Of a stretch of 64,000 nucleotides of DNA, positions 6,474-34,029 are shown piece by piece (the first letter of the stretch is position 1; each line of letters begins with the position of its first letter). This DNA comes from an uncultured Rivularia sp. (GTDB lineage Bacteria; Cyanobacteriota; Cyanobacteriia; Cyanobacteriales; Nostocaceae). The stretch is from positions 2,912,001 to 2,976,000 of the forward strand of contig OY762007.1 in assembly GCA_963665115.1 (NCBI GenBank), read 5' to 3'. A program made the translations under genes and the position numbers. The notes under the pieces were generated by a model. That model saw only the letters and a list, made by a program, of their open reading frames with translations, had not been told where the DNA came from and made no database searches.

Positions 6474-6479
6474 AATTTA

Positions 6480-9599: not shown

Positions 9600-10356
9600 A
9601 CCCGTATCCGTATCAAAACGATGCAGCTAGTAAAAATACACTTAATATCTTGTGCTTTTTAGGCTAAACCAATTTAATAACTCCTATGCAAAATTATCTA
9701 AAAATAAATCGTAGCTTGAGTCAAAATTTTAACCCATTTTGGGAGTTTTTCGGCTTTTGCTTTTTTGGTAAGTAAAATTCTTTAGGATTAAATTACAATC
9801 TAAATCGTGTATATATTGCATCCACCAAAAGTTGTAGATTTCACTATCAGGCTTTTGCAATAGTTACTACAGTTACTACCAATTTAGATAATCTATAAGT
9901 AGTCCACTGTACAGAATTAAGGTCAACTTTTAAGTTATGAGAGTGATTTTTTTGCTCCCAGATTATATTGACCCGATTTATTACACATCAAATACTAATG
10001 TTAAGTAATGCAATAAAAAGAATTGTCACAGGTGAGTTGACTTAATTAAGTAAATAAACTTATCATTGGCTAATATTTGATAAATATTGGATAAAGTAGT
10101 AGTATAAATACTTAATTTATTAAAATCAGTTTAAAATTTTGCTGGTATAACTGCGATCTGCTCGCAGCAGCGCTTCACTATCGCAATTAAACGTTTAGAC
10201 AGATTTATTATATGGAAAATGCGATTGTAAGAAATATTGAATGGAAGCAATTTGATTTATAAACAAGATTTATTTGCAGCTAAAAATTCATTGAGAAGTT
10301 TCGCAATACTTTAGTGCTATCTATTATTAATCGTCAGTAATTACTGATTCTTAGCT

Positions 10357-11121: not shown

Positions 11122-11215
11122 AGAAGGGAACGGCGCATGGGTAACAGGGAACAGTGGTAAGAAGAAAATCTACACCCTTAACCTTCCGCAAAATCCAAAA
11201 TTAGAAAGGTGAATT

Positions 11216-12010: not shown

Positions 12011-12131
12011 GGGGAGATGGGAAGATGGGGAGACAAGGAGACAAGGAAAAATTATTTTCTAACTCGCTACTCACTACTTACTACTTACTACTCCTAACCA
12101 CTATCAACTATCAACTAACTGGTAACTGAAA

Positions 12132-13393: not shown

Positions 13394-13449
13394 TATTAAT
13401 TTTTCCCATTACCAATTACCCATTCCCAATTCCCAATTACTTATATATA

Positions 13450-14565: not shown

Positions 14566-14657
14566 GCAGTGAACAGTTATCAGTTACCAGTGAACAGTTA
14601 CCAATCAACTCCTAATTCCTAACTCCTAATTCCTAACTCTTAACTATATCAAAAAGG

Positions 14658-15539
14658 ATGCAGCCTAAAATATCAGTTGTCACACCAAGCTTTAATTCCG
14701 AAAAAACTATTGAAAAAACTATTTTGAGCGTTATCAATCAACAGAGAATATATCCTTTAGAGTATATCGTAGTTGATGGAGGTTCTACAGATAATACTCG
14801 TGAAATAATTCAAAAATATGCAAAAAATATAGATAAACTTAAATTGAAAGTCAAACTTAAACTTAAATATATATCCGAACCAGATTCCGGTGCTTACGAT
14901 GCAATGAACAAAGGAATTAATCTTGCTACCGGAGAGATTATCGGTATTATTAATTCCGATGATTGGTACCTTGAAAATACAATCAAAACAGTAGAAGAAG
15001 AATTTGATCGGCATCCAGATATAGATATATTATATTCGCCCATCGAGAACTACTATCAAGGTAAATATATCGCTACCTTTATTCCGGGAGAATTGGAAAA
15101 ACTATCGATTCGCTTTACTTTAAATCACCCATCTTGCTTTATTAAAAAATCGGCTTACATTGCAGGGGGTTTGTATGACTTAAAATATAAAATCGCCGCC
15201 GACTACGATCTGATTTTACGCTTATTTAATAATGGATTTAAATTTCATTCTATCAAAACTCCCTTAGCAGCCTATTCTCTCAATGGAATGAGTTCGTCAC
15301 CCTTACCTTGGGATAGAGCAAAATTGATCGAAGAATGTTGGAAAATAAGTAATAAGGCATCTAATAATTTTCCACAAGTATCGGAGAAAGAACGGACAAA
15401 AGCCTACATAGCATGGATTATAAACGAAGTATTTGCATTACCAGCAAGATATTTTTTCAAACCACCTACCGCACGCAAAATAAAAAGTATTATTCAACTG
15501 TTTACAAAAAAATCTGCATCTGGATATGGAAAATGGTAA
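14658..15539 (+). CDS. GT2 glycosyltransferase
   Basis: ISVVTPSFNS, VDGGSTD, SEPDSGAYDAMNKG, NSDD, ADYD. Confidence 0.9.
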   Translation: MQPKISVVTPSFNSEKTIEKTILSVINQQRIYPLEYIVVDGGSTDNTREIIQKYAKNIDKLKLKVKLKLKYISEPDSGAYDAMNKGINLATGEIIGIINSDDWYLENTIKTVEEEFDRHPDIDILYSPIENYYQGKYIATFIPGELEKLSIRFTLNHPSCFIKKSAYIAGGLYDLKYKIAADYDLILRLFNNGFKFHSIKTPLAAYSLNGMSSSPLPWDRAKLIEECWKISNKASNNFPQVSEKERTKAYIAWIINEVFALPARYFFKPPTARKIKSIIQLFTKKSASGYGKW

Positions 15540-15545
15540 AGTATT

Positions 15546-16652
15546 ATGTCAAAAATATTATTTATTTGTGCCCATGCTCCTACTAATTTATATCCTCAAG
15601 CAGGGCAAAAGATAGCTTTAACTAATTTGAATAAATATCATCTTGATAATACAACTGTTGATATCGTTGTTATAGCGAATAAAGCAGAAATAAATGCTGC
15701 TATAGATTTAGTGGGTAAATATAAAAATAACCTTTTTGCCTATCCTCTTGAAAAGTCAGATAAAATAATTAGCTGTTTAACTAACTTATCTATTCCTTTT
15801 AAATTTTCTACCCGTTATCAAAAACCTGTAGTTCAAAAATTGCAGGAATTATTAGCAAAAAATACTTATAATGCGATTCATTTTGAATATTCTCATGCTG
15901 CGGTTTACTTAGATTTAATCAGTGATTTAATCAAAAATAAAATTAAATCTAAAAATACTTGCACCATTATCAGCATACATGATGTCGTCTCTCAATCTTT
16001 TTTACGAAAATCTCAAAACAATATTATATTGGGTATCGAAGTAGCCAGATTATTTAAATTTGAAAAAAAGCTTTATTCCGAAGTAGATGAATTATGGGTT
16101 TTATCAACAAAAGACCGCAATATTCTTACTTCTTTATTTACCATACCAGAAAATAAAATTCTTATCAAACCTCCCCAATTGAGTCACTTTATATATAAAA
16201 TCGAACGTAATGTAGAGAACATTGAGAAAAAAAGTTTGTTATTTTGGGCTGCAATGAATCGACCTGAAAACGAGAAAGCAGCTATAATTTTTATTCAAAA
16301 ATGCTTTACAAACCTGCTTAAAATAGACCCCGAATACAAATTATATATTGTCGGTTCCAACCCTTCCCCAAAAATCAGAAAATTTGCCAGCGAGAATATT
16401 ATCATAACTGGATTTATAGAAAACCCCACGAAATTTTTTGAAAAAGCTCAAATAGGCATAGTACCTTTACTTCAAGGTGCGGGAATCAAACTAAAGACAT
16501 TAGAAATGCTTCAAGCAGGTTTGCCAGTTATTTCAACCAGTATCGGTGCTGAAGGGATAGAAACATCAACAAATATATTTATTAACGATAACTTTGATGA
16601 CTGGGTAAATATTATTATAAACGAGAGCGTGCGGAAAATTAACCATCGATAA
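15546..16652 (+). CDS. GT4 glycosyltransferase
   Basis: VPLLQGAGIKLKTLEMLQAGLPVIST..GAEG. Confidence 0.85.
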   Translation: MSKILFICAHAPTNLYPQAGQKIALTNLNKYHLDNTTVDIVVIANKAEINAAIDLVGKYKNNLFAYPLEKSDKIISCLTNLSIPFKFSTRYQKPVVQKLQELLAKNTYNAIHFEYSHAAVYLDLISDLIKNKIKSKNTCTIISIHDVVSQSFLRKSQNNIILGIEVARLFKFEKKLYSEVDELWVLSTKDRNILTSLFTIPENKILIKPPQLSHFIYKIERNVENIEKKSLLFWAAMNRPENEKAAIIFIQKCFTNLLKIDPEYKLYIVGSNPSPKIRKFASENIIITGFIENPTKFFEKAQIGIVPLLQGAGIKLKTLEMLQAGLPVISTSIGAEGIETSTNIFINDNFDDWVNIIINESVRKINHR

Positions 16653-16836
16653 ATTATCGCGTTAGTGGGAATTAGCCTCGTATTCATGCACCATCAAAAC
16701 CGCCATAAACCATACAATATGACTCGAAACTAATTGAAATTTAATTGGCGATCGCCCGACATCGGATTTTCTTTGTTGCACTTTTAAGTTAAAATTAATA
16801 ATTCGGTTTGGTTTAGCGCAATATTTCTGCCTAAGT

Positions 16837-17316
16837 ATGGTTCGTTATACTCTCGTTCAAAGTCCAGAAATCATCCTTACTGTTCCCGGCAAAGATTCCG
16901 ATAAAGCTCGTGAAAAAGCAATGGATAAGCTGATGGAAATTATGGAAGCGGGTGATTTACCTTCCGAACTCGAAGAAGGATTTGGTCCTCAACAATTGAT
17001 TGAAGTGAAAGAACCGTCAATGGATAGTGCTAGCGGTGAAGATACGATTATAGAAGCAGTTCAGCTTTTGAGTAATCTTGCAACTCTAAAGCTGAAAGTT
17101 CAAGACACGCGCGCCGAAGCTTTAGAAGTTCGTAAGTTAGTTGACATCCTTTTTTCAGATCAATCCGTCAGCGAGGAAGAAATTTCCAGCCTCAAAGAAG
17201 GTTTTAAAGCTCTGAAAAACTTTGCTCAAGCTAATTTACGCTATAAAGATGCGCGAGAGAAAGCCGAACAAGCTCGTCAAGTACTCGATCAAGCTTTGAA
17301 GTCTCCAGATAATTAG
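16837..17316 (+). CDS. Hypothetical protein (acidic, coiled-coil)
   Basis: 159-aa ORF with normal codon pattern; no family motif recognised. Confidence 0.7.
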   Translation: MVRYTLVQSPEIILTVPGKDSDKAREKAMDKLMEIMEAGDLPSELEEGFGPQQLIEVKEPSMDSASGEDTIIEAVQLLSNLATLKLKVQDTRAEALEVRKLVDILFSDQSVSEEEISSLKEGFKALKNFAQANLRYKDAREKAEQARQVLDQALKSPDN

Positions 17317-17334
17317 CTTGCTTCGATCAAAAAA

Positions 17335-17470
17335 TTAGGAGTCAGGAATTAATATCCCAACTCCTAACTCTTTAAAGGTTAAAGGTTAAAGGTTAAAGTT
17401 CAAAAGTTTAACACTCCTAACTATTAACTTCTAACCCTAACTCCTAACTCCTAATTCCTAATTCCTAACC
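17335..17470. repeat. STRR-type repeats (AAAGGTT)n and (CTCCTAA/TTCCTAA)n between convergent genes
   Basis: Visible tandem heptamers. Confidence 0.8.
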
Positions 17471-19675
17471 TCATACCTTAACTTTATTTGCCGAAGATTT
17501 TCCAGCCTCGGTTGCATCATCTGCATCAATTCTTTCTCTACTCACCTTGTAGTACTGTTGATAATTACTTTGAGAAGTAGGTGTGGACTCTTTAGATTTA
17601 TTCGCTACCAAACCTAAAATAGGAGTACCGCTAACTTGAAGTTCCTCTAACGCCTGTGCGAATGCAGTGCGTTTCAATTTACCTAAACCAGCTACCAACA
17701 TAACGCCATTAGTATTTGCTGCCAATAAGTTAGCATCAGCGAAACCAACTATAGGCGTAGTGTCATAAATTACTAAATCAAAGCTGCTATGTAGTTCGTT
17801 CATTAAGTCCTGCATTTTCACAGACGCTAACAATCTAGTAGAGTCTGGTGGAACCGGGCCAGCAGCCATTACATACAGATTATCTTCAAGGGGGGAGCGT
17901 TCAATCACATTGCTCCACTCCAATTCAGAAGAAATAATATCCGTTAAACCCTGGATATTCATCAATCCTACACGGTTGTGTATAGTAGGACAGCGGAGAT
18001 TTGCATCCACTAATAAGACTCTTTGTCCCATCGCTGCTGCGGCCAAAGCTAACTGTATAGCAACAGTAGTTTTACCGTCTTCTGGTGTTGCCGAACTAAC
18101 TACAAGCGAACGAATCGGTGTATCCGAACCCAGAAGAAGAATATTGGTGTAAAGAGAGCGAAAAACTTCAAAAAAGGCGGCGCGTGCTGTTTGATGAACT
18201 CCACTAGCTGCTCCATCTTGCTTGCTACTAGCTGCAAGTTCTTTGCTGAAAGGAACTACCCCCAATAACGGTAATCTAGTAGTTTCTTTCAAATCTTTAG
18301 AAGTGTAGAAAACATTGCTCAACTTGTCTACAATTAAAGCAGCACCCACACCCAATAACAAGCCTAAAGCTCCACCCAAAGCTAAGTTTTTTCTAGCACT
18401 TTGTGACATAGCTTCAGGATTTTCAACTTTAGTAAGTTGAGGATCTAGTAACTTCCAAGGCTGCTGTTTTTGAGACTTTTCAATTTCCAGGGCTTGCTGC
18501 TTGGTTAAAAACTGGTTTAGCCCTGTGGTAGCAATCTGTAACTCCCGCTGAATATTTTCGTAATCGCGGGTAACTGTTGCCAAATTTCTCAGTTCTGCAT
18601 TGAGCTTATCTACCTTGTCACCTAAAGATAGATCGCGAGCATATAACGTTTGGATGCGACTTTGAAATTCTTGTTGAACTCGCTGTTCTTCTGCATTCAG
18701 CATTGGAATCAAATTCGCTTTCCTTTGCCGTAAAGTCTGCATAGTTGGATTGATATCCGTAAATTTAGCAGACTCCGTTTTGACCTCAATCTCAACTTTC
18801 TGGATTTCGTCTAAGATTTTTTGGTAGCGAGGATTTTCACTCAGTATCGAATTACCTGCCCTCTCCGCTGGCTGCTGCGCTAATTCCTTTTGTAACTCCT
18901 TATACTGAGCCATCATTTGTTCGTACTCTACCCGGTTGCTTAATCGCTGTTGCGTCAAAGTAGCAATTTGACCGGACACTTCAGTTGCTTTCTGTGCGGG
19001 TTCAATCAGGTTGTTCACGCTTCGCAGCATTCGCAATTTATTTTGCAAGTCTTTAACCCGCTGTCTTAAGCCACCTTTAGTGATTCGTCCTTGAACAAAT
19101 TTAATAGCCTGATTAATGTCTTCCTGTCGTTCCTTTAAGCTGTACTCTAAATAAGATTGAGCAACTTCGTTTAAAACATCACTCACTAGTTGCTTGTCTG
19201 CGGCTACATATCCTACCGTTAAAATATTTTTCTGACTGGAGGCAATAATTAAACCCTTAACAAATGATTCGTATTCCAGATTTGGATACTTCGTCTGAAG
19301 CTTTTCTACAACTGAATCAAGTACTCGCGGGCTTTTTAAAACTTTAATTGTTGTTGCAATATCTTTTTCCGACTCCGGAAGTGCGATCGCATCCTTAGAA
19401 CCCAAGGTTTGAGGTACGTTTGATATAGCTTTACTTTCCCCAGTCACGGGTTCAGTTAAAATCTCAAACTGACCCTGATATATCGGAGGATCGGTTTCTG
19501 CTTTCAACACCGCAGCGGTTGCTACTACCCCGGTACAACCAACAATTAATAATGCACGCCGTCGCAGAGCCGCTCCAACTTGCCCTAAATTCAATCCACC
19601 TTCTTCAGCTTCATTCAAGGGGCTACCTGCTTGAGAAAAGAGGTAAGAATTTTTATCTGACTTCAACATAGTCAT
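17471..19675 (-). CDS. wzc: Wzc-family polysaccharide tyrosine autokinase/co-polymerase
   Basis: Walker A SATPEDGKT, VDANLR, IYDTTP, C-terminal Tyr cluster NYQQYY. Confidence 0.9.
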   Translation of the reverse strand: MTMLKSDKNSYLFSQAGSPLNEAEEGGLNLGQVGAALRRRALLIVGCTGVVATAAVLKAETDPPIYQGQFEILTEPVTGESKAISNVPQTLGSKDAIALPESEKDIATTIKVLKSPRVLDSVVEKLQTKYPNLEYESFVKGLIIASSQKNILTVGYVAADKQLVSDVLNEVAQSYLEYSLKERQEDINQAIKFVQGRITKGGLRQRVKDLQNKLRMLRSVNNLIEPAQKATEVSGQIATLTQQRLSNRVEYEQMMAQYKELQKELAQQPAERAGNSILSENPRYQKILDEIQKVEIEVKTESAKFTDINPTMQTLRQRKANLIPMLNAEEQRVQQEFQSRIQTLYARDLSLGDKVDKLNAELRNLATVTRDYENIQRELQIATTGLNQFLTKQQALEIEKSQKQQPWKLLDPQLTKVENPEAMSQSARKNLALGGALGLLLGVGAALIVDKLSNVFYTSKDLKETTRLPLLGVVPFSKELAASSKQDGAASGVHQTARAAFFEVFRSLYTNILLLGSDTPIRSLVVSSATPEDGKTTVAIQLALAAAAMGQRVLLVDANLRCPTIHNRVGLMNIQGLTDIISSELEWSNVIERSPLEDNLYVMAAGPVPPDSTRLLASVKMQDLMNELHSSFDLVIYDTTPIVGFADANLLAANTNGVMLVAGLGKLKRTAFAQALEELQVSGTPILGLVANKSKESTPTSQSNYQQYYKVSRERIDADDATEAGKSSANKVKV

Positions 19676-20587
19676 AGTAAATTAAAATTACTTAATATAG
19701 ATAGACGTAATTTGTAGCTTTCATTACCTAAAGACACCATCGCTAGACGGTTTACTTTAATGTTTTGACAACAGCGATGCACCCTATATTTCTCAAGAAG
19801 TTAACAAAATACGACCGACTGTCTCCAAGCTATCCCTATTGGTTTGTTAACAACCTACCCGACAGATATACCACCCTGTTGAAGTATTGAAGATACCAGT
19901 CTACGGCTCGCGATGCACTATGAGTCCAGTAGCATTACTTAGTCGATGCTTGTCGATTCATTTACAAGTGTAATAAATTATAATTAAAATTTCACTACTA
20001 TTTCTATAAAATACACAAATTCAGTTTCCAATACAGTGCTTGCATCCCAAAGTTTAGACCCCATCCGATAGCCAGTAAGATAATTTATCTTTATAATTAA
20101 CTTAGTGTATTATTACTCTATTAACTTTGTTTTTTCCGGACAAAACTTATTGTTAATAATTTTACCTATTTTTATTTTCTCTCAACATTCAAACATCGAA
20201 TTTTACTCTGTGAAATAATTAGTAATTGATAAATGCAAATTATGTAGGCAAGTATTAAGTGCGATTCAGTATAAGGTAGTAACAATTATTGCCCACACTC
20301 TTTTCTGTCACAACGTGGCGCTTTACATATAATACAAAGATTATTTAAAGAATATATGTTTAACATCCAATTAAATTGAAGCTAGTGCAAACTAACGTAT
20401 AGTTTTTTGATAGAAAATAGCTAAGTTCACAACAATAAAATTTTATATATCAACTTGCAGGCTCAGAAATCAACTTACAGTATTTAAAACCAATTAATCT
20501 GCTATCAAATAATATAAACAAATAAAAAACCTTCCTACTATTAGAAAGGCTATATATCGCAAAAAATATTTTTTCAATCTTAATAAA

Positions 20588-21307: not shown

Positions 21308-21902
21308 CAAGTAGTTAACAATAACGCATCTTTATTTTATAACTATATACATATCGCCAAAGAAATATTCGTATATCAAACTAATTAATACTTTTTCTAT
21401 TACTATCTACTAAGAATACTAAGCTTCTATACAATTACACATTTCAATTTTACATTAACTTTATATATATGTTAACTTCATAAATTATCCGGAATTAGTT
21501 ACCCATACTTACGTATATCTTTTAAGATTATACTTAATTGCCTACAGAGCTATACAGGGCTACCTAAAGCAAACATCTACCGCTACATACAGCAAGTTGC
21601 ACTCTTGTAACCGATGCCTTTTTGACTTAAATTCTCGGATCGGGGAAAATAATTTGGGTCAAATCTGTTAACGTGCCATGTTCTTTTTACTTATTCGTGC
21701 TTCAGCTAATACCTGATAGCTTGATAATGAGTACAAGTATCTACCAATAGTTATTTGGGTAACAACAAATATCAGGACATCTAAAACGATAAACTGTCTT
21801 GTAAGCTACTTGATATATCAAGTGATATCACTTATGTTAAAAAAAGTTTGATACAGGTTGCAGAGGAAAAATCAACAGATTAGAAAAAGGAAGTGTCCTA
21901 CA

Positions 21903-22205
21903 ATGATAACTTCAACAACAGATTCCATGATTTCGGAAAAATCTATAATAGTATCTGTGAAAAATCAAATTTCTTCCGATCTTGGTGGTGAAGCGGTGAT
22001 TTTAAACATGAACACCGGAACTTACCACGGTTTGAATGAAGTGGGTGCTTTTGTATGGAACTTGATTGATCAACCGCAAGTCGTAAAAGATATTCAACAA
22101 AAGCTTTTACAAGAGTACGAAATTGAAGCTTTAATTTGTACTAAAGATTTGTTTGCACTGCTTAACGATTTGCACGGTGAAGGGTTAATTGAAGTTAAGA
22201 ATTAA
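21903..22205 (+). CDS. Lasso peptide B1 / PqqD-family RiPP recognition element (copy 1)
   Basis: SDLGGEAVILN...G.YHGLNEVG..VW.LI; close paralog of 28618-28935. Confidence 0.9.
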   Translation: MITSTTDSMISEKSIIVSVKNQISSDLGGEAVILNMNTGTYHGLNEVGAFVWNLIDQPQVVKDIQQKLLQEYEIEALICTKDLFALLNDLHGEGLIEVKN

Positions 22206-22645
22206 ACGCCTGTGTAATTGTTTTAAATTTCTAGGTGTAATAGGTGCTTTCGATTAACTTCCGTATTTTACTTTCAGTTATCAGATTAGATTAGAACTGT
22301 GGTTTCTACCGTTTCGAGTTTTATTAAAAAAAGTTAGTTTACTCAAACTGTATTTAGGTCACGTATATTAAACCAAATTTCTGTCAGTAAAGTTATTTCG
22401 GCTGTAAATATAGCTACTTGCTATACACTTAGGCAATCAAAGTATTTCACACTATCGCGTTTACTACTAAGGTGTTGATGAGTCGTTGTGCTTGTCTTCT
22501 TGAACTTACAGGTATTATTTTCTGAGTAAGTAAAACTTTCTGGCTCATGCTGGGATTAAATACAAGAAAAGGGTTGTAATTAATTCCGTAAGTAAACCTT
22601 TAACGATTTATCTCACTACCATCTCTCGAAGGAATCAGATTATGA
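22201..22645 (+). pseudogene. Degraded lasso B2 leader peptidase
   Basis: Fragments IRLELWFLPFRVLLK, AVNIATCY..QSKYF, TTKVLMS, AHAGIKYK..VVI and RFISLPSLEGIRL* align with the intact B2; start is ATT instead of ATG; several frameshifts. Confidence 0.85.
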
Positions 22646-24672
22646 GCGGTATCGTAGGTATTTGCTACCTGGATAAAAGTCCTGTAGAACAACAAAATAT
22701 AGCGCGAATGATTGATACATTGGCGCATCGGGGACCTGATGGTGCAGACATCTGGGTAGATGGTTCTGTGGGCTTAGGACACCGGATGTTATGGACTACT
22801 CCTGAGTCTTTGATAGAAAAACTGCCTTTAGTCAATCAAAGGGGCGATATAGTTCTTACTTCTGATTGTCGCATAGATAATCGCGAAGAGTTGATTGCTG
22901 CATTACAGTTAAATAATCGTTCCTCCGAGAAAATTACTGATAGTGAATTAGTTCTGGGTGCCTATGAGAAATGGGGTGAAGAATGTCCGGAACATTTGTT
23001 AGGTGATTTTGTCTTTGCCATTTGGGATAAGCGAAAACAGACTTTGTTTTGTGCTAGAGATCATATGGGGGTTAAGCCATTTTATTATTTCCATCAGCCG
23101 GGTAAACTGTTTGCTTTTGGTAGCGAGATAAAAGCGCTGTTATCTTTGCAGGATGTACCGCGAAGGCTGAATGAAATTAAGGTAGGCGACTATCTAGCAT
23201 CAAATTTTCAAGATAAAGTTGAAACCTTTTATCAAGATATCTTTCGTCTTCCACCTGCGAGTTGTTTAACTTTAAATCGGAAAGGATTGCAAATTCGTTC
23301 TTATTGGTCTCTCGATCCAGAGCGCGAATTATGTTTAAGTTCTGATGAGGAGTATGCAGAGGCATTGCAGGAAATCTTTGCAGAATCAGTACGGTGTCGG
23401 TTGCGTAGCGCTTTTCCTGTAGGTTCTCATCTCAGTGGTGGACTGGATTCTTCTTCTGTCACCTGTATGGCACGGAAAATTTTAGAAGAAAAGAATTCTA
23501 AGTTACATACTTTCTCTAATATATTTGATACAGTTACTCAATGTGACGAACGCCCTTTTATCGAAGCTGTACTTGCTCAGGGCGGAATGAATCCTCACTA
23601 CGTCCACGGCGATGAACTCGGACCTCTATCAGACTTAAAACGAATCTTTAAATATCACGACGAAGTATTTTTTGGTCCCACTCATTTTCTAGTTTGGGTA
23701 GCCAACCTTGCAACAGAGAATCAAGGTATCCGAATTGTACTTGATGGCTTTGACGGCGATACCACAATTTCTCACGGTGATGGTTATTTTACCGAACTAG
23801 CACACAAAGGACAATGGGCTGCTTTTGCCAAGCAAGCGAATGATATTGTTCAACGTGCGGGGGGTGGTTCACCTTTAAATATTCTGAGGAGTTCTGGTCT
23901 TACTTATGTAGAAGACTTAGCACGAAAATCAAACTGGCTTGGTTTTGCCAAAGAAACTCGTCAGATATCCAAATACTTTGATATCTCCCAGCAACAGATT
24001 CTTGTGCAACATGGCTTAAAGCCATTGATTCCTGAGTCTGGGCGGCTAGCTTGGCGAAAACTACGCGGACACAATGAGCCGATGCTTAACGCCAATTGGC
24101 TATTTAACCGCAGCTTTGCTCAAAAAATCGGCTTGAAAAAACGTATTAAGGCTTTAGATGAATCTCAGTCTCATCTTCCCGTGACAGAAAGGGAGTATCA
24201 CTGGCGTTATCTAACTTGGGGCTTAGTCGGGTATGCGATGGAGACGTTGGATAAATCATATGCAACCTTTTCAATCGAAGCCCGTCATCCATTCATGGAT
24301 AAACGATTAATTGAATTTTGTCTCTCCTTACCGCCGCAGCAAAAGCTCAACCAAGGATGGACTCGCTTAGTTATGCGCCGTGCCATGCAGAATATTCTTC
24401 CCGAACAAGTGCAGTGGCGACAAACTAAATCTAAAATGACTGCTAGCTTTATACATGGGCTACTCAATCTAAACCGTCAGGTGTTAGATGATTTGATGCA
24501 AAATCACCTTGAGCCAATCGCTACCTACGTAGATATAAATGCTCTGCGTCAAGGCTATGAAAAATTGACATCTAGTAGCAAGATTGGTTCTTATGAAAAT
24601 TCCATATTAATTGAAATATGGAAAGCAGTTACCCTTAGCTTCTGGTTGCGTCACAGCCAGATTGAGTATTAA
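22642..24672 (+). CDS. Lasso peptide cyclase (isopeptide bond-forming, AsnB-like), copy 1
   Basis: MSGI N-terminus (no catalytic Cys1), HRGPD, SGGLDSS, DGFDGD, PFMDKRL; flanked by B1 and precursor. Confidence 0.92.
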   Translation: MSGIVGICYLDKSPVEQQNIARMIDTLAHRGPDGADIWVDGSVGLGHRMLWTTPESLIEKLPLVNQRGDIVLTSDCRIDNREELIAALQLNNRSSEKITDSELVLGAYEKWGEECPEHLLGDFVFAIWDKRKQTLFCARDHMGVKPFYYFHQPGKLFAFGSEIKALLSLQDVPRRLNEIKVGDYLASNFQDKVETFYQDIFRLPPASCLTLNRKGLQIRSYWSLDPERELCLSSDEEYAEALQEIFAESVRCRLRSAFPVGSHLSGGLDSSSVTCMARKILEEKNSKLHTFSNIFDTVTQCDERPFIEAVLAQGGMNPHYVHGDELGPLSDLKRIFKYHDEVFFGPTHFLVWVANLATENQGIRIVLDGFDGDTTISHGDGYFTELAHKGQWAAFAKQANDIVQRAGGGSPLNILRSSGLTYVEDLARKSNWLGFAKETRQISKYFDISQQQILVQHGLKPLIPESGRLAWRKLRGHNEPMLNANWLFNRSFAQKIGLKKRIKALDESQSHLPVTEREYHWRYLTWGLVGYAMETLDKSYATFSIEARHPFMDKRLIEFCLSLPPQQKLNQGWTRLVMRRAMQNILPEQVQWRQTKSKMTASFIHGLLNLNRQVLDDLMQNHLEPIATYVDINALRQGYEKLTSSSKIGSYENSILIEIWKAVTLSFWLRHSQIEY

Positions 24673-24813
24673 AACAGGTGCATCCCCAATATATATCTAA
24701 CTTCTATTTGTATTATTATCTCATTTCTATCTGTACTCTTATTAAAGCGGGGTATTTCCCAAAAGGAGTACCTCTATCGCGAAACACAAACAAAAACCAC
24801 AGGAATTCAAACA

Positions 24814-25005
24814 ATGAAGAAAACTTACGAAGCACCCAAACTCACCAACCACGGTACAGTAGCTCAAATGACCAATTTCTTTGGTAAAGGAGATGGAGAC
24901 ACTTTAATTGGTCCAGGTCCCAATGATGACACAGGTAACCCTGGTGGTTCCATCGATGCTTGTGCAACATTCGACCAGGGCAACTGCTTCGGTAAAGATA
25001 ATTAA
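24814..25005 (+). CDS. Lasso peptide precursor A1 (21-aa leader + 42-aa core)
   Basis: Leader YEAPKLTNHGTVAQMT matches Y-x-x-P-x-L-x3-G-x5-T; AGGA RBS; core Asp at positions 6 and 8. Confidence 0.9.
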   Translation: MKKTYEAPKLTNHGTVAQMTNFFGKGDGDTLIGPGPNDDTGNPGGSIDACATFDQGNCFGKDN

Positions 25006-25030
25006 TTAAGTTTATGAAAGAAGCAAGCTG

Positions 25031-25368
25031 TGCAAATTTGACTGCAACTCGAATGTACATTAAAGGCTTACTTCTGACAAATTCAGCATTACCGAACAAG
25101 TTCTAATCTAATATGAGTACAATACTCATGCTTCAGGGAATTCATCTAATTTGATATCTGTATCTACCATCGAGAGTTCAAAGTCTGAATCAATTCACTT
25201 TGATAAAAGACTTTGAACCTCGACACCTAACAAAGCAATGTCGATTAATTCGTACCAATTTATTTGCTTGAGAAGTCAAAGTAAGCAATTGTAAATTCGA
25301 CTGCAACTCGAATGTACATCTAAAACTTAACTCTGACAATTTCAGCATTACCGAACAAGCTCTAATCT
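25031..25368. repeat. 79-bp direct repeat pair (25031-25109 and 25290-25368)
   Basis: Ungapped alignment, 69/79 identical by manual count, 259-bp period. Confidence 0.9.
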
Positions 25369-25553
25369 GTCCTCAATATAGCATTAATTAATTAAGTTGC
25401 AGGTGTAATTAAATACGTCTGGCTACTGCGTGATGTCTTTTTTTAGAAGTTAATTGAATTTAACATCCTACTTAAGACAGAAAAATCATATTTTTATCTA
25501 AACAATATCCTTACTTTCTACCTCTTAAGCAAGATGTAATTTACCAATTAAAT

Positions 25554-26489
25554 ATGTTCACCTATTCTGCCTACAATCTTCGTATTGACTCTGAAATTTT
25601 CTTCTCCGAACTTGTAACTTCTCAGGAGGACTTAAGCCGAATCGAACAACTACCCCAAATAATCATACAGCAACGTGAAATCAATCGCTCAGAAATTAAA
25701 AATGCGAATGGTGGCGATCGCTTTGTAGGATATTTAGAAATAAATAAATTACAGTCGTGTAGGTTTTTAGTAGAATTTGGTCGCAAGATTGTGATTGAGC
25801 CTGTCTTAGGAATCGCAGACAATATTATTCGTCCCTGTATTCTCGGTCCGATATTTAGCGTACTGCTGAGGCAAAGAGGACTGCTGGTTGTCCATGCTAG
25901 TTGTGTTGGTATTGATGATGAAGCTGTTGCATTCCTTGGAAATTCAGGATGGGGTAAGTCAACCTTGGCTAATGCTTTTTATAACCAAGGATATCCCCTA
26001 CTTACCGATGATGTAATGGCAATTGAGATTAACAAAGGAAATGAAAGCAATGCAATTACTTTTCCTGCTTATCCCTGTGTGAAACTGCTGCCAGATTCGG
26101 CTGCCAGTTTAGGATACGATTTTGAGGAACTAGCTGTAATTAACTCAGGTTTACTCAAGCGTCATAACAGTCTTACTGAAAAATTTGTACAAAAGCCTTT
26201 ACCCGTCAAGCGAATATACGCATTAGAAAATATTGCAGCCCCTCGTCATGAAGTGCAAACGCTTTCTTCTCAAGATGCACTTGTAGAATTGGTTCGTCAT
26301 TCTCGTGTTACGAATTTATTGACTACTCCTGAATTCACTAGTGCTCATTTGCATCAATGTACGCAACTGATAAAAAAAGTACCTGTTTATCGTTTGAGAA
26401 GACAAAAAACGCTAGCCGCACTTCCCGATTTAGTAAAACTTATAGAAGATGACGTTGCCAAAAGTAATCGTGTAATATCATATACCTAA
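25554..26489 (+). CDS. HPr-kinase-like lasso peptide kinase (PadeK-type), copy 1
   Basis: HAS, Walker A GNSGWGKST, LTDD. Confidence 0.85.
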   Translation: MFTYSAYNLRIDSEIFFSELVTSQEDLSRIEQLPQIIIQQREINRSEIKNANGGDRFVGYLEINKLQSCRFLVEFGRKIVIEPVLGIADNIIRPCILGPIFSVLLRQRGLLVVHASCVGIDDEAVAFLGNSGWGKSTLANAFYNQGYPLLTDDVMAIEINKGNESNAITFPAYPCVKLLPDSAASLGYDFEELAVINSGLLKRHNSLTEKFVQKPLPVKRIYALENIAAPRHEVQTLSSQDALVELVRHSRVTNLLTTPEFTSAHLHQCTQLIKKVPVYRLRRQKTLAALPDLVKLIEDDVAKSNRVISYT

Positions 26490-26583: not shown

Positions 26584-28398
26584 ATGCAAGCAGGCAAATT
26601 AAAAGAAAAATTCCAAAGTACGCAACGCCTATTGCCTGCTTTGCGACTGGTTTGGCAAAGTAGCCCTCGCTGGACGATCGCCCGCGTAGTAATTTTGATT
26701 GTTCAAGGTATTCTGCCTGTAGTGGGAATTTATCTGGGCAAACTAATTATAGATACAGTAGCAGCCAGCCTCACTACTGCCGATAAAACCGCAGCTTTTA
26801 ATAATGTAATATTTTTCGTTATCTTAGCAGCAGCAATCGCCCTATTAACTAACCTTGCTAACTCCCTCGGACAATTAGTTACTACCGCTCATTCCCAGCG
26901 AGTAACCGATTATATGCAGGGAATTATTCAAGCGAAATCAATTGCGGCAGATTTAGAATACTACGAAAATCCCGTATACTACGACGTATTACAAAGAGCG
27001 CAACAAGAAGCGCCTTACCGACCTCCGCAAATCCTAAATCGTTTGGCACAGGTTGGTCAAAATGCGATTACTTTAGTTGGGATGATTGCTTTACTGCTGT
27101 CGCTGCACTGGGGAATACCCGGTGTTCTTTTTGTTGCATCCTTTCCGGCTATGGTAGTGCGAGTAAAATATTCTCAGATAATGTATCGCTGGCAGCGCAA
27201 AAAAACACCAATGGAACGTCAGGCAGCTTACTTGGGCTATATGCTGACGGTAGACCAGTTTGCTAAAGAAATTCGTTTATTTAATTTAGGTTCTCACTTC
27301 TCTCAAGCGTATCTTCGCATCCGCAAACAGATATATAAAGAAAGTCTTGCGATTCTAACCGGACGTTCTTTAGCTAGTTTTGCAGTTGAGGCGATCGCCG
27401 CTATTTTAATTTTTGCAATTTATTCTTATATTATTTATCAAACTATCAACGGTGTGCTGCGTTTGGGGGATTTAGTCCTGTACTATCAAGCGTTGCAGCG
27501 GGGACAGGGCAATATCAAAGGTTTATTGAACAGTTTATCTGGACTTTATGAGGATAACTTGTTTCTGGCGAATCTCTACGAATTCCTTGATATTAAACCC
27601 AAGTTAATCGATCCTCCCAACCCCGAACCAATTCCTCATCCAATGAAAACTGGGATTGAATTTAAAAATGTCGGTTTTCAATATTCCACAACTACCCGTC
27701 AGGCACTTAAAAATATTAACCTGACAATTAAACCTGGGGAAGTAGTAGCCTTGGTGGGGGAAAATGGTTCAGGTAAAACTACTTTAATTAAACTTTTATG
27801 TAGATTGTACGACCCTACCGAAGGCAGAATTACCATCGATGGTATCGATCTAAGTCAATTTAAAACTGAAGAATTACGCCGTCAAATCAGCGTGATTTTT
27901 CAAGACTATGCAAAATATCACTTTACTGCTCAGGAAAATATTTGGTTGGGAAACATAGATTTACCACCGCAAAGCGACAGCATCATTAAAGCAGCACGGC
28001 GTTCTGGTGCGGATGATGTAATAAAAAAATTACCCAAAGGTTACGATACCATCTTGGGTAAATTATTTGACAAAGGCGAAGAACTTAGTATTGGACAGTG
28101 GCAAAAAGTTGCTTTAGCGCGGGCATTTTTGCGAGATTCCCAGCTAATTGTTTTGGATGAACCCACCAGCGCAATGGACCCCAAAGCAGAATATGAAGTG
28201 TTTGAAAAGTTCCGCCAATTAATTAAAAATCAATCCGCGATTTTGATTAGCCATCGCTTATCTACCGTGAAAATGGCCGATCGGATATACGTCATGGATA
28301 ATGGAACAATTGTCGAAGGTGGTACCCATCAGGAGTTGATGAAGTTGAAGGGTACCTACGCTCATTTGTTTGAAATACAAGCTAGTCAGTATATGTAA
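26584..28398 (+). CDS. ABC transporter, fused permease/ATPase (peptide exporter type)
   Basis: TM domain, GENGSGKT, LSIGQWQK, LDEPT, ISHRL. Confidence 0.92.
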   Translation: MQAGKLKEKFQSTQRLLPALRLVWQSSPRWTIARVVILIVQGILPVVGIYLGKLIIDTVAASLTTADKTAAFNNVIFFVILAAAIALLTNLANSLGQLVTTAHSQRVTDYMQGIIQAKSIAADLEYYENPVYYDVLQRAQQEAPYRPPQILNRLAQVGQNAITLVGMIALLLSLHWGIPGVLFVASFPAMVVRVKYSQIMYRWQRKKTPMERQAAYLGYMLTVDQFAKEIRLFNLGSHFSQAYLRIRKQIYKESLAILTGRSLASFAVEAIAAILIFAIYSYIIYQTINGVLRLGDLVLYYQALQRGQGNIKGLLNSLSGLYEDNLFLANLYEFLDIKPKLIDPPNPEPIPHPMKTGIEFKNVGFQYSTTTRQALKNINLTIKPGEVVALVGENGSGKTTLIKLLCRLYDPTEGRITIDGIDLSQFKTEELRRQISVIFQDYAKYHFTAQENIWLGNIDLPPQSDSIIKAARRSGADDVIKKLPKGYDTILGKLFDKGEELSIGQWQKVALARAFLRDSQLIVLDEPTSAMDPKAEYEVFEKFRQLIKNQSAILISHRLSTVKMADRIYVMDNGTIVEGGTHQELMKLKGTYAHLFEIQASQYM

Positions 28399-28935: not shown

Positions 28936-29356
28936 GCTTTGGAATCTGAGAAAAGTTAATTTTTACTTCTTATTTGTTACTTACTTTTTACTAGGAGCAA
29001 TTCGGTTAGGGTTGCTGTTGCTGGAATTTCGCATCTTATTAAAGATAATAAATAAACTTATTACGATAAATTTGCCACTCCCTAATGCTCGTTTAAGTCA
29101 AATTCTTTGGGGTGTCAATGTTGCAACCCGCTATATGCCAGGTGGTGCAAAGTGTTTAGCAAGAGCTTTAACTACTCAAGTATTGATGAGTCATAGTGGT
29201 TTTCCCCCGGAATTGTGCATAGGGGTTGCTAAAGGAGAGAAAGGAGAATTAGAAGCGCACGCTTGGATTAAATATCAGGGATACGTTGTTATCGGTTATC
29301 TACCAGATCTACCACGCTACATTCAACTACCATCCCTTGAAGGAATTAAATTATGA
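28919..29356 (+). CDS. Lasso peptide B2 leader peptidase (transglutaminase-like)
   Basis: Catalytic motifs AKCLARAL and AHAW; overlaps B1 and is coupled to the cyclase by ATGA. Confidence 0.92.
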   Translation: MKLLRKLWNLRKVNFYFLFVTYFLLGAIRLGLLLLEFRILLKIINKLITINLPLPNARLSQILWGVNVATRYMPGGAKCLARALTTQVLMSHSGFPPELCIGVAKGEKGELEAHAWIKYQGYVVIGYLPDLPRYIQLPSLEGIKL

Positions 29357-31281
29357 GCGGCATCGTAGGTATTCACTACTTTGACGAACGTCCTGTAGAC
29401 CGCGAAAACTTAACAAAAATGGTTGATATATTGGCGCATCGCGGCCCAGATGGTGCAGATATCTGGGTTGATGGGTGCGTTGGTTTGGGACACAGGATGT
29501 TATGGACTACTCCCGAATCACTTATAGAAAAGCTACCTTTGGTAAATCAGAGGGGCGATTTAGTAATTACAGCAGATGCTCGGATTGACAATCGCGATGA
29601 ATTGATAGCTGCTTTACAGATAAATAATCGTCCTGCTGATAAGATTACAGATAGCGAGCTGATACTGGCAGCATACGGGAAATGGGGCGAAGATTGCCCA
29701 AAGCATTTATTAGGTGACTTTGCATTTGCGATTTGGGATCGGCGTAAGCAGATGTTATTTTGCGCTAGAGACCATTTTGGGGTGAAGCCTTTCTACTATT
29801 ACTCTGCTAACAATACTTTTGTTTTTGGTAGCGAGATAAAAGCAATCTTTTGTTTACCAGAGGTTCCTCGTGAGATTAATGAGGTAAAAGTTGCTGAGTA
29901 CTTATCTATAGAAACAGACGATAAAAGTATCACTTTTTATAATGACATTTTGCGGCTTCCTCCTGCCTGTAAAATGATTGTAAAGAGTAAAACTGTGGAA
30001 TTACAGTCTTATTGGTCTCTTGATTTTACTCGCGAGTTGCGATTGAGTTCGGACGAAGAATATGCAGATACTTTCCGTAAAATCTTTACTGAAGCAGTAC
30101 GCTGTAGATTGCGTAGCGCTTTTCCTATAGGCTCAATGTTAAGCGGTGGCTTGGATTCTTCGTCTATCACCTGTGTAGCACGGAAGTTCATCGCAGAGAA
30201 AGAAGAAAAAAATAAATTACACACTTTCTCAGCAGTTTTTGATAAAGTAACCGAATGCGATGAGCGTGTTTTTCAAGATGCAGTTCTTGCCCAAGGAAAT
30301 ATTGAACCGCATCACTTTCATGCTGATGGATTCAGTCCTTTAACCGATTTTGAACAAGTTCTTTGGCATCAAGATGAAGCTTATTCTGCTGGTAACTTAT
30401 ATTTAAATTGGAATCTTTATAAACCTGCTAGAAAAAATGGTGTTCGCGTTATTTTAGATGGATTTGATGGAGACAGTACCGTATCTCATGGTTTAGGATA
30501 TTTAACTGAATTAGCCAGTAAGGAGCAATGGTTTCAATTAGCTATACATATAAGAAATTACTGTACAAGAATAGGTAAACCTTGGCAAGAAGACTTATGG
30601 AGTTGGATATGGGTTTATAAAATTAATCCTATTATTTGCAAATCTCGCATTCTTACTAAAGCATGGCGCAAATCACAAAAATTGTTTCAAAAAAATCAAC
30701 TTCAAAAACCAGCTTGGAGAAGATTAATTAATTCAGAATTTGTTAAGCAAATTAACTTAATTGAGCGTCTAAGAAATCAACCAAATCCCCCAACAACCGA
30801 ACGGGAAACACAATACCGTTGTTTGATGGAAGCAGGTATGGTTCGTACTCTGGAAAATTTAGATAGAACAGCAAAAGCATATGGAATTGAACTTCGGTTT
30901 CCTTTCTGGGATAAGCGGCTTATAGAATTCTGTCTATCTTTACCTCCGGAGCAAAAGATATCAAAGGGTTGGACTCGGATGGTAATGCGTCGAGCGATGA
31001 AAGATATCCTACCGCAAAAAGTGCAATGGCGAGTCGGTAAATCAAATATGCATCCAGGATTTGAAAGAGGATTGCTCGAATTTGAGCGATTGCGCTTAGA
31101 GCAAATCATTTTACATAACCCGAAAGTAATTGAAAAGTATGTAAATATCGCTGCCCTACAGCAAGCATATCACCGCTACCTGTCTAAACAAGCAACAGTG
31201 GAAGAAGTTAACTCTATTTGGAAAGCTTTTTCTCTAGCTCTGTGGTTAGAACACAAGAATTTGCCAAAACAGAGCTTGTAA
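29353..31281 (+). CDS. Lasso peptide cyclase, copy 2
   Basis: MSGI, SGGLDSS, DGFDGD, PFWDKRL; paralog of 22642-24672. Confidence 0.92.
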   Translation: MSGIVGIHYFDERPVDRENLTKMVDILAHRGPDGADIWVDGCVGLGHRMLWTTPESLIEKLPLVNQRGDLVITADARIDNRDELIAALQINNRPADKITDSELILAAYGKWGEDCPKHLLGDFAFAIWDRRKQMLFCARDHFGVKPFYYYSANNTFVFGSEIKAIFCLPEVPREINEVKVAEYLSIETDDKSITFYNDILRLPPACKMIVKSKTVELQSYWSLDFTRELRLSSDEEYADTFRKIFTEAVRCRLRSAFPIGSMLSGGLDSSSITCVARKFIAEKEEKNKLHTFSAVFDKVTECDERVFQDAVLAQGNIEPHHFHADGFSPLTDFEQVLWHQDEAYSAGNLYLNWNLYKPARKNGVRVILDGFDGDSTVSHGLGYLTELASKEQWFQLAIHIRNYCTRIGKPWQEDLWSWIWVYKINPIICKSRILTKAWRKSQKLFQKNQLQKPAWRRLINSEFVKQINLIERLRNQPNPPTTERETQYRCLMEAGMVRTLENLDRTAKAYGIELRFPFWDKRLIEFCLSLPPEQKISKGWTRMVMRRAMKDILPQKVQWRVGKSNMHPGFERGLLEFERLRLEQIILHNPKVIEKYVNIAALQQAYHRYLSKQATVEEVNSIWKAFSLALWLEHKNLPKQSL

Positions 31282-31500
31282 AAATATGTATGAAATTTAT
31301 CCTATCAAGAACCCGGTTTTTTTACTAATTACACAACAAAAAAATTATGGTTTGACTAAAAAACCGGGTTTCTTAAGATTTATTAATCCAAGATATCAAT
31401 TTAAATCAAGTTATAGAACGTTTTACTTTACGTCCAATCTTTATATGAAGCGAAATATAATTCGCACCAAAAATCTCGTAAACAATAAGGACTTCAAACT

Positions 31501-31669
31501 ATGAATTCTCAAATTAAAAAGTCTTACATCGCACCTGAATTGACTACTCACGGTAACGTTGAGGAAATCACTTTACAAGGGGTCTTTACAGAATGCAGAT
31601 GTACCTAACGGACCTAATGGCACTGCTAACTGTTTTGCAGGTAGTACAGATCCATCTTGTATCTCATAG
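31501..31669 (+). CDS. Lasso peptide precursor A2 (not in ORF track; +1 frameshift in G-run 31579-31582)
   Basis: MNSQIKKSYIAPELTTHGNVEEITL leader with AAGGA RBS; removing one G gives core QGSLQNADVPNGPNGTANCFAGSTDPSCIS*. Confidence 0.85.
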
Positions 31670-31830
31670 TCTAAGCAATTGCTACTGATAAAAAAGTAGC
31701 TTCTGATTAGGTAAATGACAGGAAGTAGATGTCTATAATATTGGCATCTACTCCCATTCATTTACTCTTACAAACTATAGAGCACAAGTTTTAGCTTATT
31801 AAATAATTGATTCTATTAAAAGAAAAACAA

Positions 31831-32751
31831 ATGTATTTTTATAAAGCATACGGTCTTTTATTTCGCTGTAGCTTTGATTTACCAGAATTTATCACTACTG
31901 AAGAAGCAGAACCTGATGTTGTAATCACTCGGGGTAAGATAGAACATTCTTTTCCCGAGCATATACCCGCCCAAGGCTACTTTTATGCTACAGAAAATGA
32001 GGCATATTTTGCTTGGCAGACAATTGGAAAATTTTTAGTCAGAGATGGTAAAGAGATTATTATCGAATCTTTACAAACTGCTGAAGAAAGAATGATTCGT
32101 TTACCGCTTGTGGGAACTATTTCAGCGGTACTGCTTCATCAACGCGGGTTATTAGTTTTACACTCTAGCGCTGTGGCTATCGACGGAAAAGTAGTTTCTT
32201 TTGTTGGTGAAAAAGGGTGGGGTAAGTCAACAATGGCTGCAACCCTTTACGGAAGGGGACATATTCTTATGTCTGATGATGTAGTTGCTTTAGACATGAG
32301 TAACCCAACAAAACCTATGGTTATTCCTGGTTTCCCACAGTTCAAGCTATACCCTGAAGCCGCAGCTTTTTCTCTTGGAGATAACCCTGAAACGTTACCC
32401 ATAGTTGCTTCTGGCTATGACAAGCGGATTCGCCGCATTACTGAGAATTTCTCAGTACAATCTTTTCCTCTAACTCATATCTTTGTTTTAGGACAAGGTT
32501 CGGTACCAGAAATCAAGCCACTGTCAAATCAAGAGTCTTTAATACAATTAATTACTCATTCTTACGCAAGTAGATTTGGTCAGAAACTGTTAACTGGAAA
32601 CAGAGCGGCACAACATCTTCATAATTGTACGTCATTAATTAAAAATATATCTATTTATAGTTTAGAACGTCCCAAATCTTTGCCATTATTATCAGAAATA
32701 GCACAGTTAGTAGAGACGCAAACTCAAAAAATAGCTCAAATATTAGTGTAG
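31831..32751 (+). CDS. HPr-kinase-like lasso peptide kinase, copy 2
   Basis: LHSS, Walker A GEKGWGKST, MSDD. Confidence 0.85.
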   Translation: MYFYKAYGLLFRCSFDLPEFITTEEAEPDVVITRGKIEHSFPEHIPAQGYFYATENEAYFAWQTIGKFLVRDGKEIIIESLQTAEERMIRLPLVGTISAVLLHQRGLLVLHSSAVAIDGKVVSFVGEKGWGKSTMAATLYGRGHILMSDDVVALDMSNPTKPMVIPGFPQFKLYPEAAAFSLGDNPETLPIVASGYDKRIRRITENFSVQSFPLTHIFVLGQGSVPEIKPLSNQESLIQLITHSYASRFGQKLLTGNRAAQHLHNCTSLIKNISIYSLERPKSLPLLSEIAQLVETQTQKIAQILV

Positions 32752-32898
32752 TTATTAACTTGCCGATACAAAAATATAATCTGGCAAGTTAATTAGTTTT
32801 ATTACAAGTATAATCATAGAGTGCGGCTCAAAAGTTAAATTAATTACATGGAATTCCAAATAACATAATATAAATTTCAAAAACCAACAATTACACCC

Positions 32899-34029
32899 AT
32901 GAAAACTTTATCTAAACCCGATACTAAAAACCAGATAATCAATACTTGTCCCGAAATAGAACTACTTCTATCTTCCCTTAACCCCGATATTAATGATGCT
33001 GTAACAGAACGCATCAAAGCATTAGTTAAACAAAACATTGATTGGCAATACTTAACCCAAACAGCAGATAGACATGGGGTATTATCTCTACTATATTCTC
33101 GCATCAATAATATTTGCCCAGAAGCGGTACCAGAACTACTCTTAAATCAATGGCGCAACAGTTTTCAATACGTTGCACAACGCAACTTGTTTTTAACAGG
33201 TGAACTTGTCAATCTTCTGAAATTATTAAAAGAACAAAATATTGTAGCTTTACCTTATAAAGGACCTATTTTAGCGACTTTAGTTTACAAAAATGTGGCT
33301 CTGCGACGTTTCGGAGATTTAGATATTATCGTACAACAAAAAGATATCTTTGCAGTACGAGAACTATTAATAGCCCAGGGATATCGACTTTACAAAGAAA
33401 TGACTGATGCGGAGTTGGTAAAATACCTAAACTCTAAAACCGAGCATACTTATGATTTTATTCATGAAGATAAAAATGTCTTTTTAGAAATTCACTGGCG
33501 AATTGCACCGAAGTATATCACTCCTATCGAAGCGAAAGATTTGTGGCAAGATTTAGAATCTTTTTCTTTAGCTGGTACAACTATAAACAACTTACCTTTA
33601 GAAGATTGGCTACCAATTCTCTGCGTGCATGGTTCCAGACACGTATGGGAACGTTTATCATGGCTGTGCGACATCGCAACGTTGATTCATAAAAATCCAA
33701 ATATAAATTGGGAAAAAGTTGTCCAAAAGGCTAATCTGTGGGGTTGTCAGCGGATGCTATTTTTGGGACTTTATATGGCACATGATTTATTTGGTGTTAG
33801 CTTACCCACAGAAATTTGGCAGCAAATGAAAAAGGTTGAGCCTATATTAAGTGGTATTGCTCCCCAAGTATATAAGCAGCTTTTTGGCGAAGTTAGAACT
33901 TCTGATAAATTTATGGGAAGAACTCTTTATCACATTCAGGTAAGAGAACGTTTAAACCATAAAATTTTGTATATTCAATCTTTTATTTACTGGTTGGTTA
34001 AAGGTAAAAAGGAGATAGTTGATAAATAA
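32899..34029 (+). CDS. Nucleotidyltransferase family protein (PadeN/PsmN-like)
   Basis: PYKGP, RRFGDLDI, EIHW, HG..H.W.RL.WLCD; follows the lasso kinase. Confidence 0.85.
   Translation: MKTLSKPDTKNQIINTCPEIELLLSSLNPDINDAVTERIKALVKQNIDWQYLTQTADRHGVLSLLYSRINNICPEAVPELLLNQWRNSFQYVAQRNLFLTGELVNLLKLLKEQNIVALPYKGPILATLVYKNVALRRFGDLDIIVQQKDIFAVRELLIAQGYRLYKEMTDAELVKYLNSKTEHTYDFIHEDKNVFLEIHWRIAPKYITPIEAKDLWQDLESFSLAGTTINNLPLEDWLPILCVHGSRHVWERLSWLCDIATLIHKNPNINWEKVVQKANLWGCQRMLFLGLYMAHDLFGVSLPTEIWQQMKKVEPILSGIAPQVYKQLFGEVRTSDKFMGRTLYHIQVRERLNHKILYIQSFIYWLVKGKKEIVDK

Follow-up and report, generated by a model that had tools for sequence, protein, structure and literature searches.

Between a lasso cyclase gene and the kinase gene downstream of it, the window (the whole 64,000-nucleotide stretch of uncultured Rivularia sp. 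DNA analysed here) carries an open reading frame that starts like a lasso peptide precursor and ends too soon. Is this a broken gene, a switchable one, or an intact one masked by a single false base, and what would it encode? The features of the gene are:

31487..31491, + strand: RBS-like AAGGA, seen in the sequence 9 bases 5' of the ATG; AGGA also present in the relative G007
31501..31575, + strand: leader peptide of 25 aa with a YxxPxL motif (Tyr9, Pro12, Leu14) and Thr24 at -2; NF033528 match, 23/25 residues identical in G007
31576..31669, + strand: core peptide of 30 aa when three Gs are read, then TAG; Gln1, Ser3, Asp8, Cys19, Phe20, Cys28, Ser30
31579..31582, + strand: G run within a GGGTC motif; four Gs in the window and in sequencing run X1, but only three in X2 and in X3
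31671..31765, + strand: two stem-loops directly 3' of the read-through stop; -36.9 kcal/mol, z -6.8, 0/200 shuffles as good

As the window reads, the ATG at 31501 opens a 35-aa frame that stops at 31606-31608 and leaves a core of just 10 aa, too short for a lasso peptide, as the preliminary description had observed. The rest of the core lies in the +1 frame, through the TAG at 31667-31669. With three Gs (P0002, the reading of X2 and X3) the gene encodes a 55-aa precursor with Ser30 before the TAG and with an acceptor at core positions 7-9, namely Asp8, which is invariant in alignments A1 and A3. The prediction that deletion of one G would yield a 30-aa core with Asp8, Cys19/Cys28 and a C-terminal Ser was thus borne out by two runs. 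The ATG, an RBS and a canonical leader were also present as described, but the frame is not unannotated: its truncated 35-aa product had already been entered as a called protein (P0008). The exact sequence of the read-through precursor was absent from the protein collection searched.

NF033528 (NCBIfam, cyanobacterial lasso peptide) matched the leader at E 1e-7, with 31.7 bits for the precursor as read and 31.1 bits read through, below the cut-off of 33; the relative P0123 scored 34.5 bits, above it. When lasso precursor P0122, from an unrelated cyanobacterium, was searched against 401 genomes sampled from the phylum, its sole match (E 1.3e-9) was the +1 frame alone, in the window's own assembly (G000), and the match is therefore not attributable to chance. 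The leader motif, Asp8 and neighbouring genes that exceed the NF033536, NF033537 and NF033535 cut-offs uphold the identification as a lasso precursor. A PDB sequence search returned no meaningful match for the precursor, and a promoter scan did not rise above shuffled sequence (5 against 2.8 +/- 1.5). The stem-loops at 31671..31765 are likely the 3' end or an attenuator of the precursor mRNA; they fit a gene end at the read-through TAG, and the earlier stop is compatible with them too.

Three sequencing runs, X1-X3, from different samples of one study, matched 98-99% of the words sampled from the locus. They were compared by per-contig counts, because low-depth contigs from other strains made up most of the table of other letters. 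In X2 (depth 65.8) a single contig across 5.6 kb had 1 gap, at 31579, and 0 other letters; X3 (depth 244) likewise had 1 gap at 31579 and 0 other letters. X1 (depth 205) had four Gs at 31579-31582, with no alternative contig listed, so that the four Gs of the window were reproduced by one run and contradicted by two. Because the window is matched letter for letter by X1, this run is most simply, and probably, the source of the assembly.

The same pattern recurred elsewhere. Between 44001 and 64000, X2 and X3 each lacked one base at 47363, 57494, 59765 and 62200, X1 lacked none, and 0 substitutions were found in any of the three runs over these 20 kb. All five missing-base sites are GGGTC or its complement GACCC, a motif that occurs 13 times in the 25.6 kb compared. 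Four ORFs in the window are split; at the junctions of three (47363, 57494 and 62200) the extra base is missing from both X2 and X3, and 59765 is a further extra-base site beyond the split-ORF junctions. The fourth, an ABC transporter (6655-8506, - strand), is split at ~7175 by one extra base relative to G007, in an AAACC and not a GGGTC context. If these are the four other genes for which comparable +1 insertions had been claimed, the claim stands for three of the insertions; the fourth lies in another motif and was seen against G007 only.

Across the whole assembly, removal of one base joined two long frames at 130 of 2459 GGGTC sites (5.3%), 91 of 1251 GGGCC sites (7.3%) and 106 of 5072 GGGAC sites (2.1%), as compared with 0.3-1.1% of sites for the other 45 run motifs; these denominators are halved, since the raw count took each site twice. 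GGGTC and GGGCC are well above background. Among the genes split at GGGTC/GACCC are dnaX, uvrB and the single copies of ftsZ (at G000 5060443) and metK (at 8048873); in lysS the split falls at GTCCC. A cell without intact ftsZ, metK and such essential genes is not expected to live, and the insertions are therefore very likely errors.

These results bear on two other explanations of the fourth G. It could have arisen by mutation in the culture behind X1, as a recent pseudogene or the mark of a mutator sub-line, with X2 and X3 representing intact sister cultures. The runs do come from different samples, X1 shows no listed alternative at depth 205 and equals the window at all five sites, and its four Gs are the one result against a sequencing error. 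A true frameshift should, however, appear in independent accurate reads and be specific to the gene, and here the extra base was absent from two of three runs while the motif errs elsewhere. Mutation would moreover have to confine itself to a single 5-base motif, the one that also splits the only ftsZ and the only metK, and to strike it with five +1 insertions over 25.6 kb without substituting any base. The G007 assembly is biased alike: its coding DNA has 6 isolated one-base insertions, as against 1 in the window. We regard this explanation as very improbable. Programmed slippage, or a phase-variation on/off switch in the G run, is harder still to credit. Both run lengths occur in runs of one organism, but no single run lists both alleles (contigs can lose rare ones), G007 has only two Gs there, unrelated genes are affected at the same motif, and 3-4 Gs would make a short tract for phase variation.

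We conclude that the fourth G is very likely a systematic, motif-specific sequencing error common to the window and X1, and that a sequencing artefact, not a biological switch, very likely hid the gene. With three Gs in X2 and X3 and the same motif erring in other genes, the precursor gene is almost certainly intact, as had been proposed. Base methylation is our guess at what causes the GGGTC errors; nothing specific to GGGTC was found in the parts of the literature on long-read error motifs that were consulted. Errors at GGGTC, GGGCC and GGGAC have likely put a few hundred false frameshifts into the assembly, and other 'split gene' findings made from it first need comparison with X2/X3.

What the intact gene would make depends on the cluster around it, whose genes are:

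21858..26489, + strand: first lasso module, with RRE (21858-22205), cyclase C1 (22642-24672), long-core precursor 1 (24814-25005) and kinase K1 (25554-26489)
26584..28398, + strand: ABC exporter; PF00005, PF00664
28618..28935, + strand: B1 / RRE leader-binding protein; NF033536 81.6 bits (cut-off 80), PF05402
28919..29356, + strand: B2 leader peptidase; NF033537 93 bits, Cys79 and His114, single match in G000
29353..31281, + strand: lasso cyclase C2; NF033535 937 bits (cut-off 525), SGGLDSS motif
31831..32751, + strand: HPr-kinase-like lasso peptide kinase K2; PF07475 E 2.7e-6, H-G-G-G-K-S-DD motif from His111
32899..34029, + strand: PsmN-like nucleotidyltransferase; PF14907 221.6 bits, D-x-D at 140-142

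As the only B2 in the genome, the peptidase presumably serves both modules, and the ABC exporter is presumably common to them as well. K2 has the His-Lys-Asp-Asp catalytic motif of an HPr-like kinase; a PDB sequence search with it gave weak HPr-kinase matches only (E 0.005-0.1). By the look of their translations, the ORFs on either side of the lasso cluster (1-19700 and 34185-59900) are polysaccharide-synthesis-like, a setting similar to that described for Bacillota lasso clusters (PMC13381572).

The window contains one long-core and one short-core module, and the two types differ throughout the loci fetched. Long cores (n = 51) lie beside C1/K1-like enzymes, and 2 end in Ser and 0 start with Gln; short cores (n = 14) lie beside C2/K2-like enzymes, with 12 ending in Ser and 9 starting with Gln. 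The order cyclase-precursor-kinase was found in all of 14 loci chosen for their similarity to the window's precursor, and a nucleotidyltransferase gene in 10 of them, three of the four others being short contigs or loci. NF033528 matches occurred in 136 of the 389 genomes of the window's taxonomic family.

An intact 55-aa orthologue occupies the same place in G007, with Gln1, Asp8, Cys19/Cys25 and a final Ser; at the DNA level, G007 was the only one of 60 relatives searched to match the intergenic region. A contig search with P0123 gave, among the matches listed, three weak, unrelated loci, and a metagenome search gave at least three loci, two of them informative. More distant relatives were collected with a profile of 17 short-core precursors, which retrieved 252 proteins; the best 120 of the 252 were parsed, as 119 without the window's own product. 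A second set consisted of the best 150 of 844 clusters (50% identity), 149 without the window's own. Asp8, Cys19 and Cys28 recur in seven relatives (P0090, P0115 and P0122-P0126). P0123 and P0125 have 30-aa cores that end in Ser30 and are identical to the window core at 21 of 30 residues, while five of the seven end at least one residue past the Ser. The core type, whose absence from relatives would have counted against the gene, is thus shared, Cys19/Cys28 included. It is also already predicted: the P0115 cluster includes Merismopedia glauca proteins named 'lasso peptide' in RefSeq, and the LassoPred supplement (213 cyanobacterial entries, of which 26 were examined together with five motif-matched rows) lists four such cores as predicted lasso peptides with a ring of 8 and the same leader cut, so that the scaffold itself stands in RefSeq and in the RODEO/LassoPred table. 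In an ungapped comparison the window core is closer to P0123, from a distant cyanobacterium (21/30), than to P0001 of G007 (13/30); at the level of protein comparison, core exchange or convergence may possibly lie behind this mismatch between leader and core.

Gln1 had been thought an uncommon residue to start a ring. On the contrary, Gln was the commonest first residue of cyanobacterial short cores, in 45/119 of the first set (best 120 of 252) and 50/149 of the second (best 150 of 844), both sets having been retrieved with a profile rich in Gln1. An Asp acceptor at position 8 or 9 was nearly invariant (112/119, best 120 of 252), and a C-terminal Ser was present in 75/119 of the same set and in 88/149 of the second. 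Cysteine was usually absent and otherwise mostly paired: 15 of the 119 cores in the first set (best 120 of 252) had two and 2 had one. Over 142 cores, 18 had two and 7 had one, as compared with Poisson expectations of 4.8 and 31.8, although kin are not independent. The pairs are of both ring-to-tail (P0007, P0016, P0070) and tail-only types. P0007, P0016, P0037, P0070 and others, with one ring Cys and one near the C-terminus, are predicted class III-type lasso peptides within families of the kinase type, and cores with adjacent Cys-Cys also occur among the short-core relatives.

The window core has exactly one Cys pair, Cys19 and Cys28, with none in the ring and with the spacing of the seven relatives. 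A tail-only disulfide, and with it class IV, had been assigned to the peptide. Both cysteines do lie outside the ring residues, but the threading point is not fixed by this. Among cysteine-free N6-x-D8 cores, 40 of 43 have an aromatic residue at positions 16-20, whereas the seven Cys19/Cys28 relatives have no aromatic anywhere in the core. Since the disulfide ring starts where the cysteine-free relatives carry their conserved aromatic, it most likely acts as the lower plug, with threading just before Cys19 in a class IV-like arrangement, as far as can be judged from the residue pattern; that both cysteines lie below the ring has slightly better than even odds.

The disulfide could instead not be tail-only, with the ring between Cys19 and Cys28 or below both, which would place the peptide outside class IV. 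For four near-identical relatives, all of those catalogued, LassoPred lists first a loop of 19 and an upper plug at 27, which would set the ring between Cys19 and Cys28; lasso loops can be as long as 20 residues (PMC13352647), and the bulky end groups proposed as the lock of pseudomycoidin (PMC6993621) suggest threading near the C-terminus. LassoPred, however, disregards disulfides according to its description (PMC12214591) and gives 16, 18 or 26 as alternatives, plugs at 16 and 18 among them, and the aromatic residues at 16-20 argue for threading just before Cys19. We consider a disulfide that is not tail-only unlikely. Its more specific form, a ring between the two cysteines, is less likely again; the disulfide would then connect loop and tail across the Gln1-Asp8 ring, locking the knot covalently in a topology outside classes I-IV, and class II, class III-like, class IV-like and straddled staples would all have evolved on one Ser-ending scaffold.

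The whole reading is of a module-2 precursor masked by a G error; its product would be a lasso closed between Gln1 and Asp8, with Cys19 and Cys28 joined by a disulfide and with Ser30 phosphorylated and probably hexosylated. We put the probability of this reading at about 0.7. By analogy with paeninodin and pseudomycoidin, B1 would bind the YxxPxL leader and K2 would phosphorylate Ser30 while it is still on the precursor. B2 would then cleave after Thr-Leu, and C2 with ATP would activate Asp8 and join it to the Gln1 amine, closing a ring of 8 residues about the tail. An N-terminal Gln can cyclise to pyroglutamate, which ring closure by C2 would have to outpace; in the literature consulted, no lasso peptide paper on the point was found. 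The nucleotidyltransferase may add, or enable the addition of, one or two hexoses on the phosphate, the ABC transporter would export the peptide, and the disulfide would form without a dedicated enzyme. We expect with good confidence that a lasso is made, and with equal confidence that the disulfide forms.

The C-terminal Ser had been described as the substrate of a PadeK-type kinase, which agrees with what is reported for PadeK and PsmK (PMC9266682, PMC6993621); the precursor has such a Ser, as does that of G007. BsfK, on the other hand, phosphorylates the ring residue Ser3 (PMC10368454), and the window core also has a Ser3. Ser3 is rare in the group (4/51 N6-x-D8 cores), which favours Ser30. 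Against this, the cores of five of the seven Cys19/Cys28 relatives extend beyond the Ser, so that the lineage does not always require a free C-terminal Ser. Ser30 nevertheless remains the likely kinase site. A phosphorylated 30-mer had been anticipated as the product. The nucleotidyltransferase (32899-34029), left out of that prediction, points to hexosylated products, and these a mass spectrometric search for the phosphorylated 30-mer alone may miss. The calculated monoisotopic neutral masses are 2901.229 for the peptide with ring and disulfide, 2981.196 with phosphate added, 3143.249 with one hexose and 3305.301 with two; a pyroglutamyl linear form with the disulfide would have 2902.213. We give hexose on the product an even chance.

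An intact gene might also yield mainly something else, namely an unthreaded branched-cyclic peptide, a pyroglutamyl-linear one, or one phosphorylated on Ser3 or another Ser/Thr. The reactivity of Gln1, the preference of BsfK, the extended ends of most of the closest relatives and the lack of any bulky residue between core positions 10 and 18 point this way, and unmodified pseudomycoidin is reportedly unthreaded (PMC6993621). The near-invariant acceptor Asp, the intact cyclase, the rarity of Ser3 and the C-terminal Ser of the majority argue against it, and we think such an outcome quite unlikely.

The predicted lasso with a modified Ser30 resembles characterized systems in several respects. Like the clusters of pseudomycoidin (psm, Bacillus pseudomycoides; PMC6993621) and paeninodin (PadeK; PMC9266682), that of the window has split B1/B2, an ABC exporter, a C-terminal Ser, and the gene order cyclase, precursor, HPr-like kinase. 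With pseudomycoidin it shares a PsmN-like nucleotidyltransferase with D-x-D, the likeness being one of PF14907 and motif. It differs from both in being cyanobacterial, in its two core cysteines, in a predicted ring of 8 residues (Gln1-Asp8) where theirs runs from Ala1 to residue 9, and in having two cyclase-precursor-kinase modules with one common peptidase; its leader is YxxP, whereas paeninodin-like leaders are WxxP (PMC13381572). By analogy it would work like pseudomycoidin with an added disulfide. The bsf cluster of Bradymonas sediminis (BsfK, BsfN; PMC10368454) has the same gene set and the same spacing of the kinase motif as K2, but its precursor ends in Asp and its leader has Ile at -2.

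The class IV peptides LP2006, pandonodin and the felipeptins (PMC7689547, PMC9266682, PMC13352647) also have one Cys pair outside the ring. The felipeptins share the 8-residue ring, and pandonodin (33 aa) the long C-terminal part. Unlike the window cluster, these are actinobacterial or proteobacterial, and the passages describing them give core genes (with FilE in the felipeptins) and mention no kinase. Closest are the Merismopedia glauca predictions (WP_146131586.1, WP_146131587.1; LP_WP_106289261*), which share the leader-core cut, the ring of 8, Asp8 and Cys19/Cys28, and in P0123/P0125 also the core length, the Ser end and the 21 of 30 identical residues. Their cores start with Asn or Ser and have no Phe20. 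They too are predictions, which LassoPred lists without a name or a PDB entry, and are known here as precursor sequences.

One account counts 47 solved lasso structures from three phyla, none of them listed as cyanobacterial (PMC12214591). No isolated cyanobacterial lasso peptide and no report of this core was found in the literature covered, at least in part (PMC12214591, PMC13352647, PMC7549694, PMC7689547, PMC10885120, PMC13381572, bioRxiv 10.1101/2020.11.25.399105), which was mostly open-access. From its sequence and the runs, the gene is almost certainly a real, intact precursor within a variant of the pseudomycoidin-type clusters, with a predicted product. Being compact, the cluster is suited to studying three questions: how a ring closes on a Gln amine, which groups PsmN-like enzymes attach, and how the holding of the knot is divided between a disulfide in the tail and a bulky phospho-sugar at its end.

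Some further observations were made on the first module and on the cluster as a whole. Precursor 1 does not end in Ser, yet K1 keeps its catalytic motif; an internal G-S-x-D motif, present in 48 of 51 long cores and 0 of 14 short cores, is a candidate internal phosphorylation site. Precursor 1 is followed by a 79-nt repeat (25031-25109 and 25290-25368, 87% identical, 259 apart), and G007 has two tandem precursor copies in the interval of these repeats, which we would guess to be remnants of a lost precursor copy. The cyclase-precursor-kinase block at 29353-32751 behaves like a swappable cassette. In four loci of the same genus (L089, L090, L097 and L100) the flanking ABC, B2 and nucleotidyltransferase genes are 86-97% identical to those of the window, C2 is 60-63% and K2 46-51% identical, and in run X5 the flanks match while ~30131-32881 does not.
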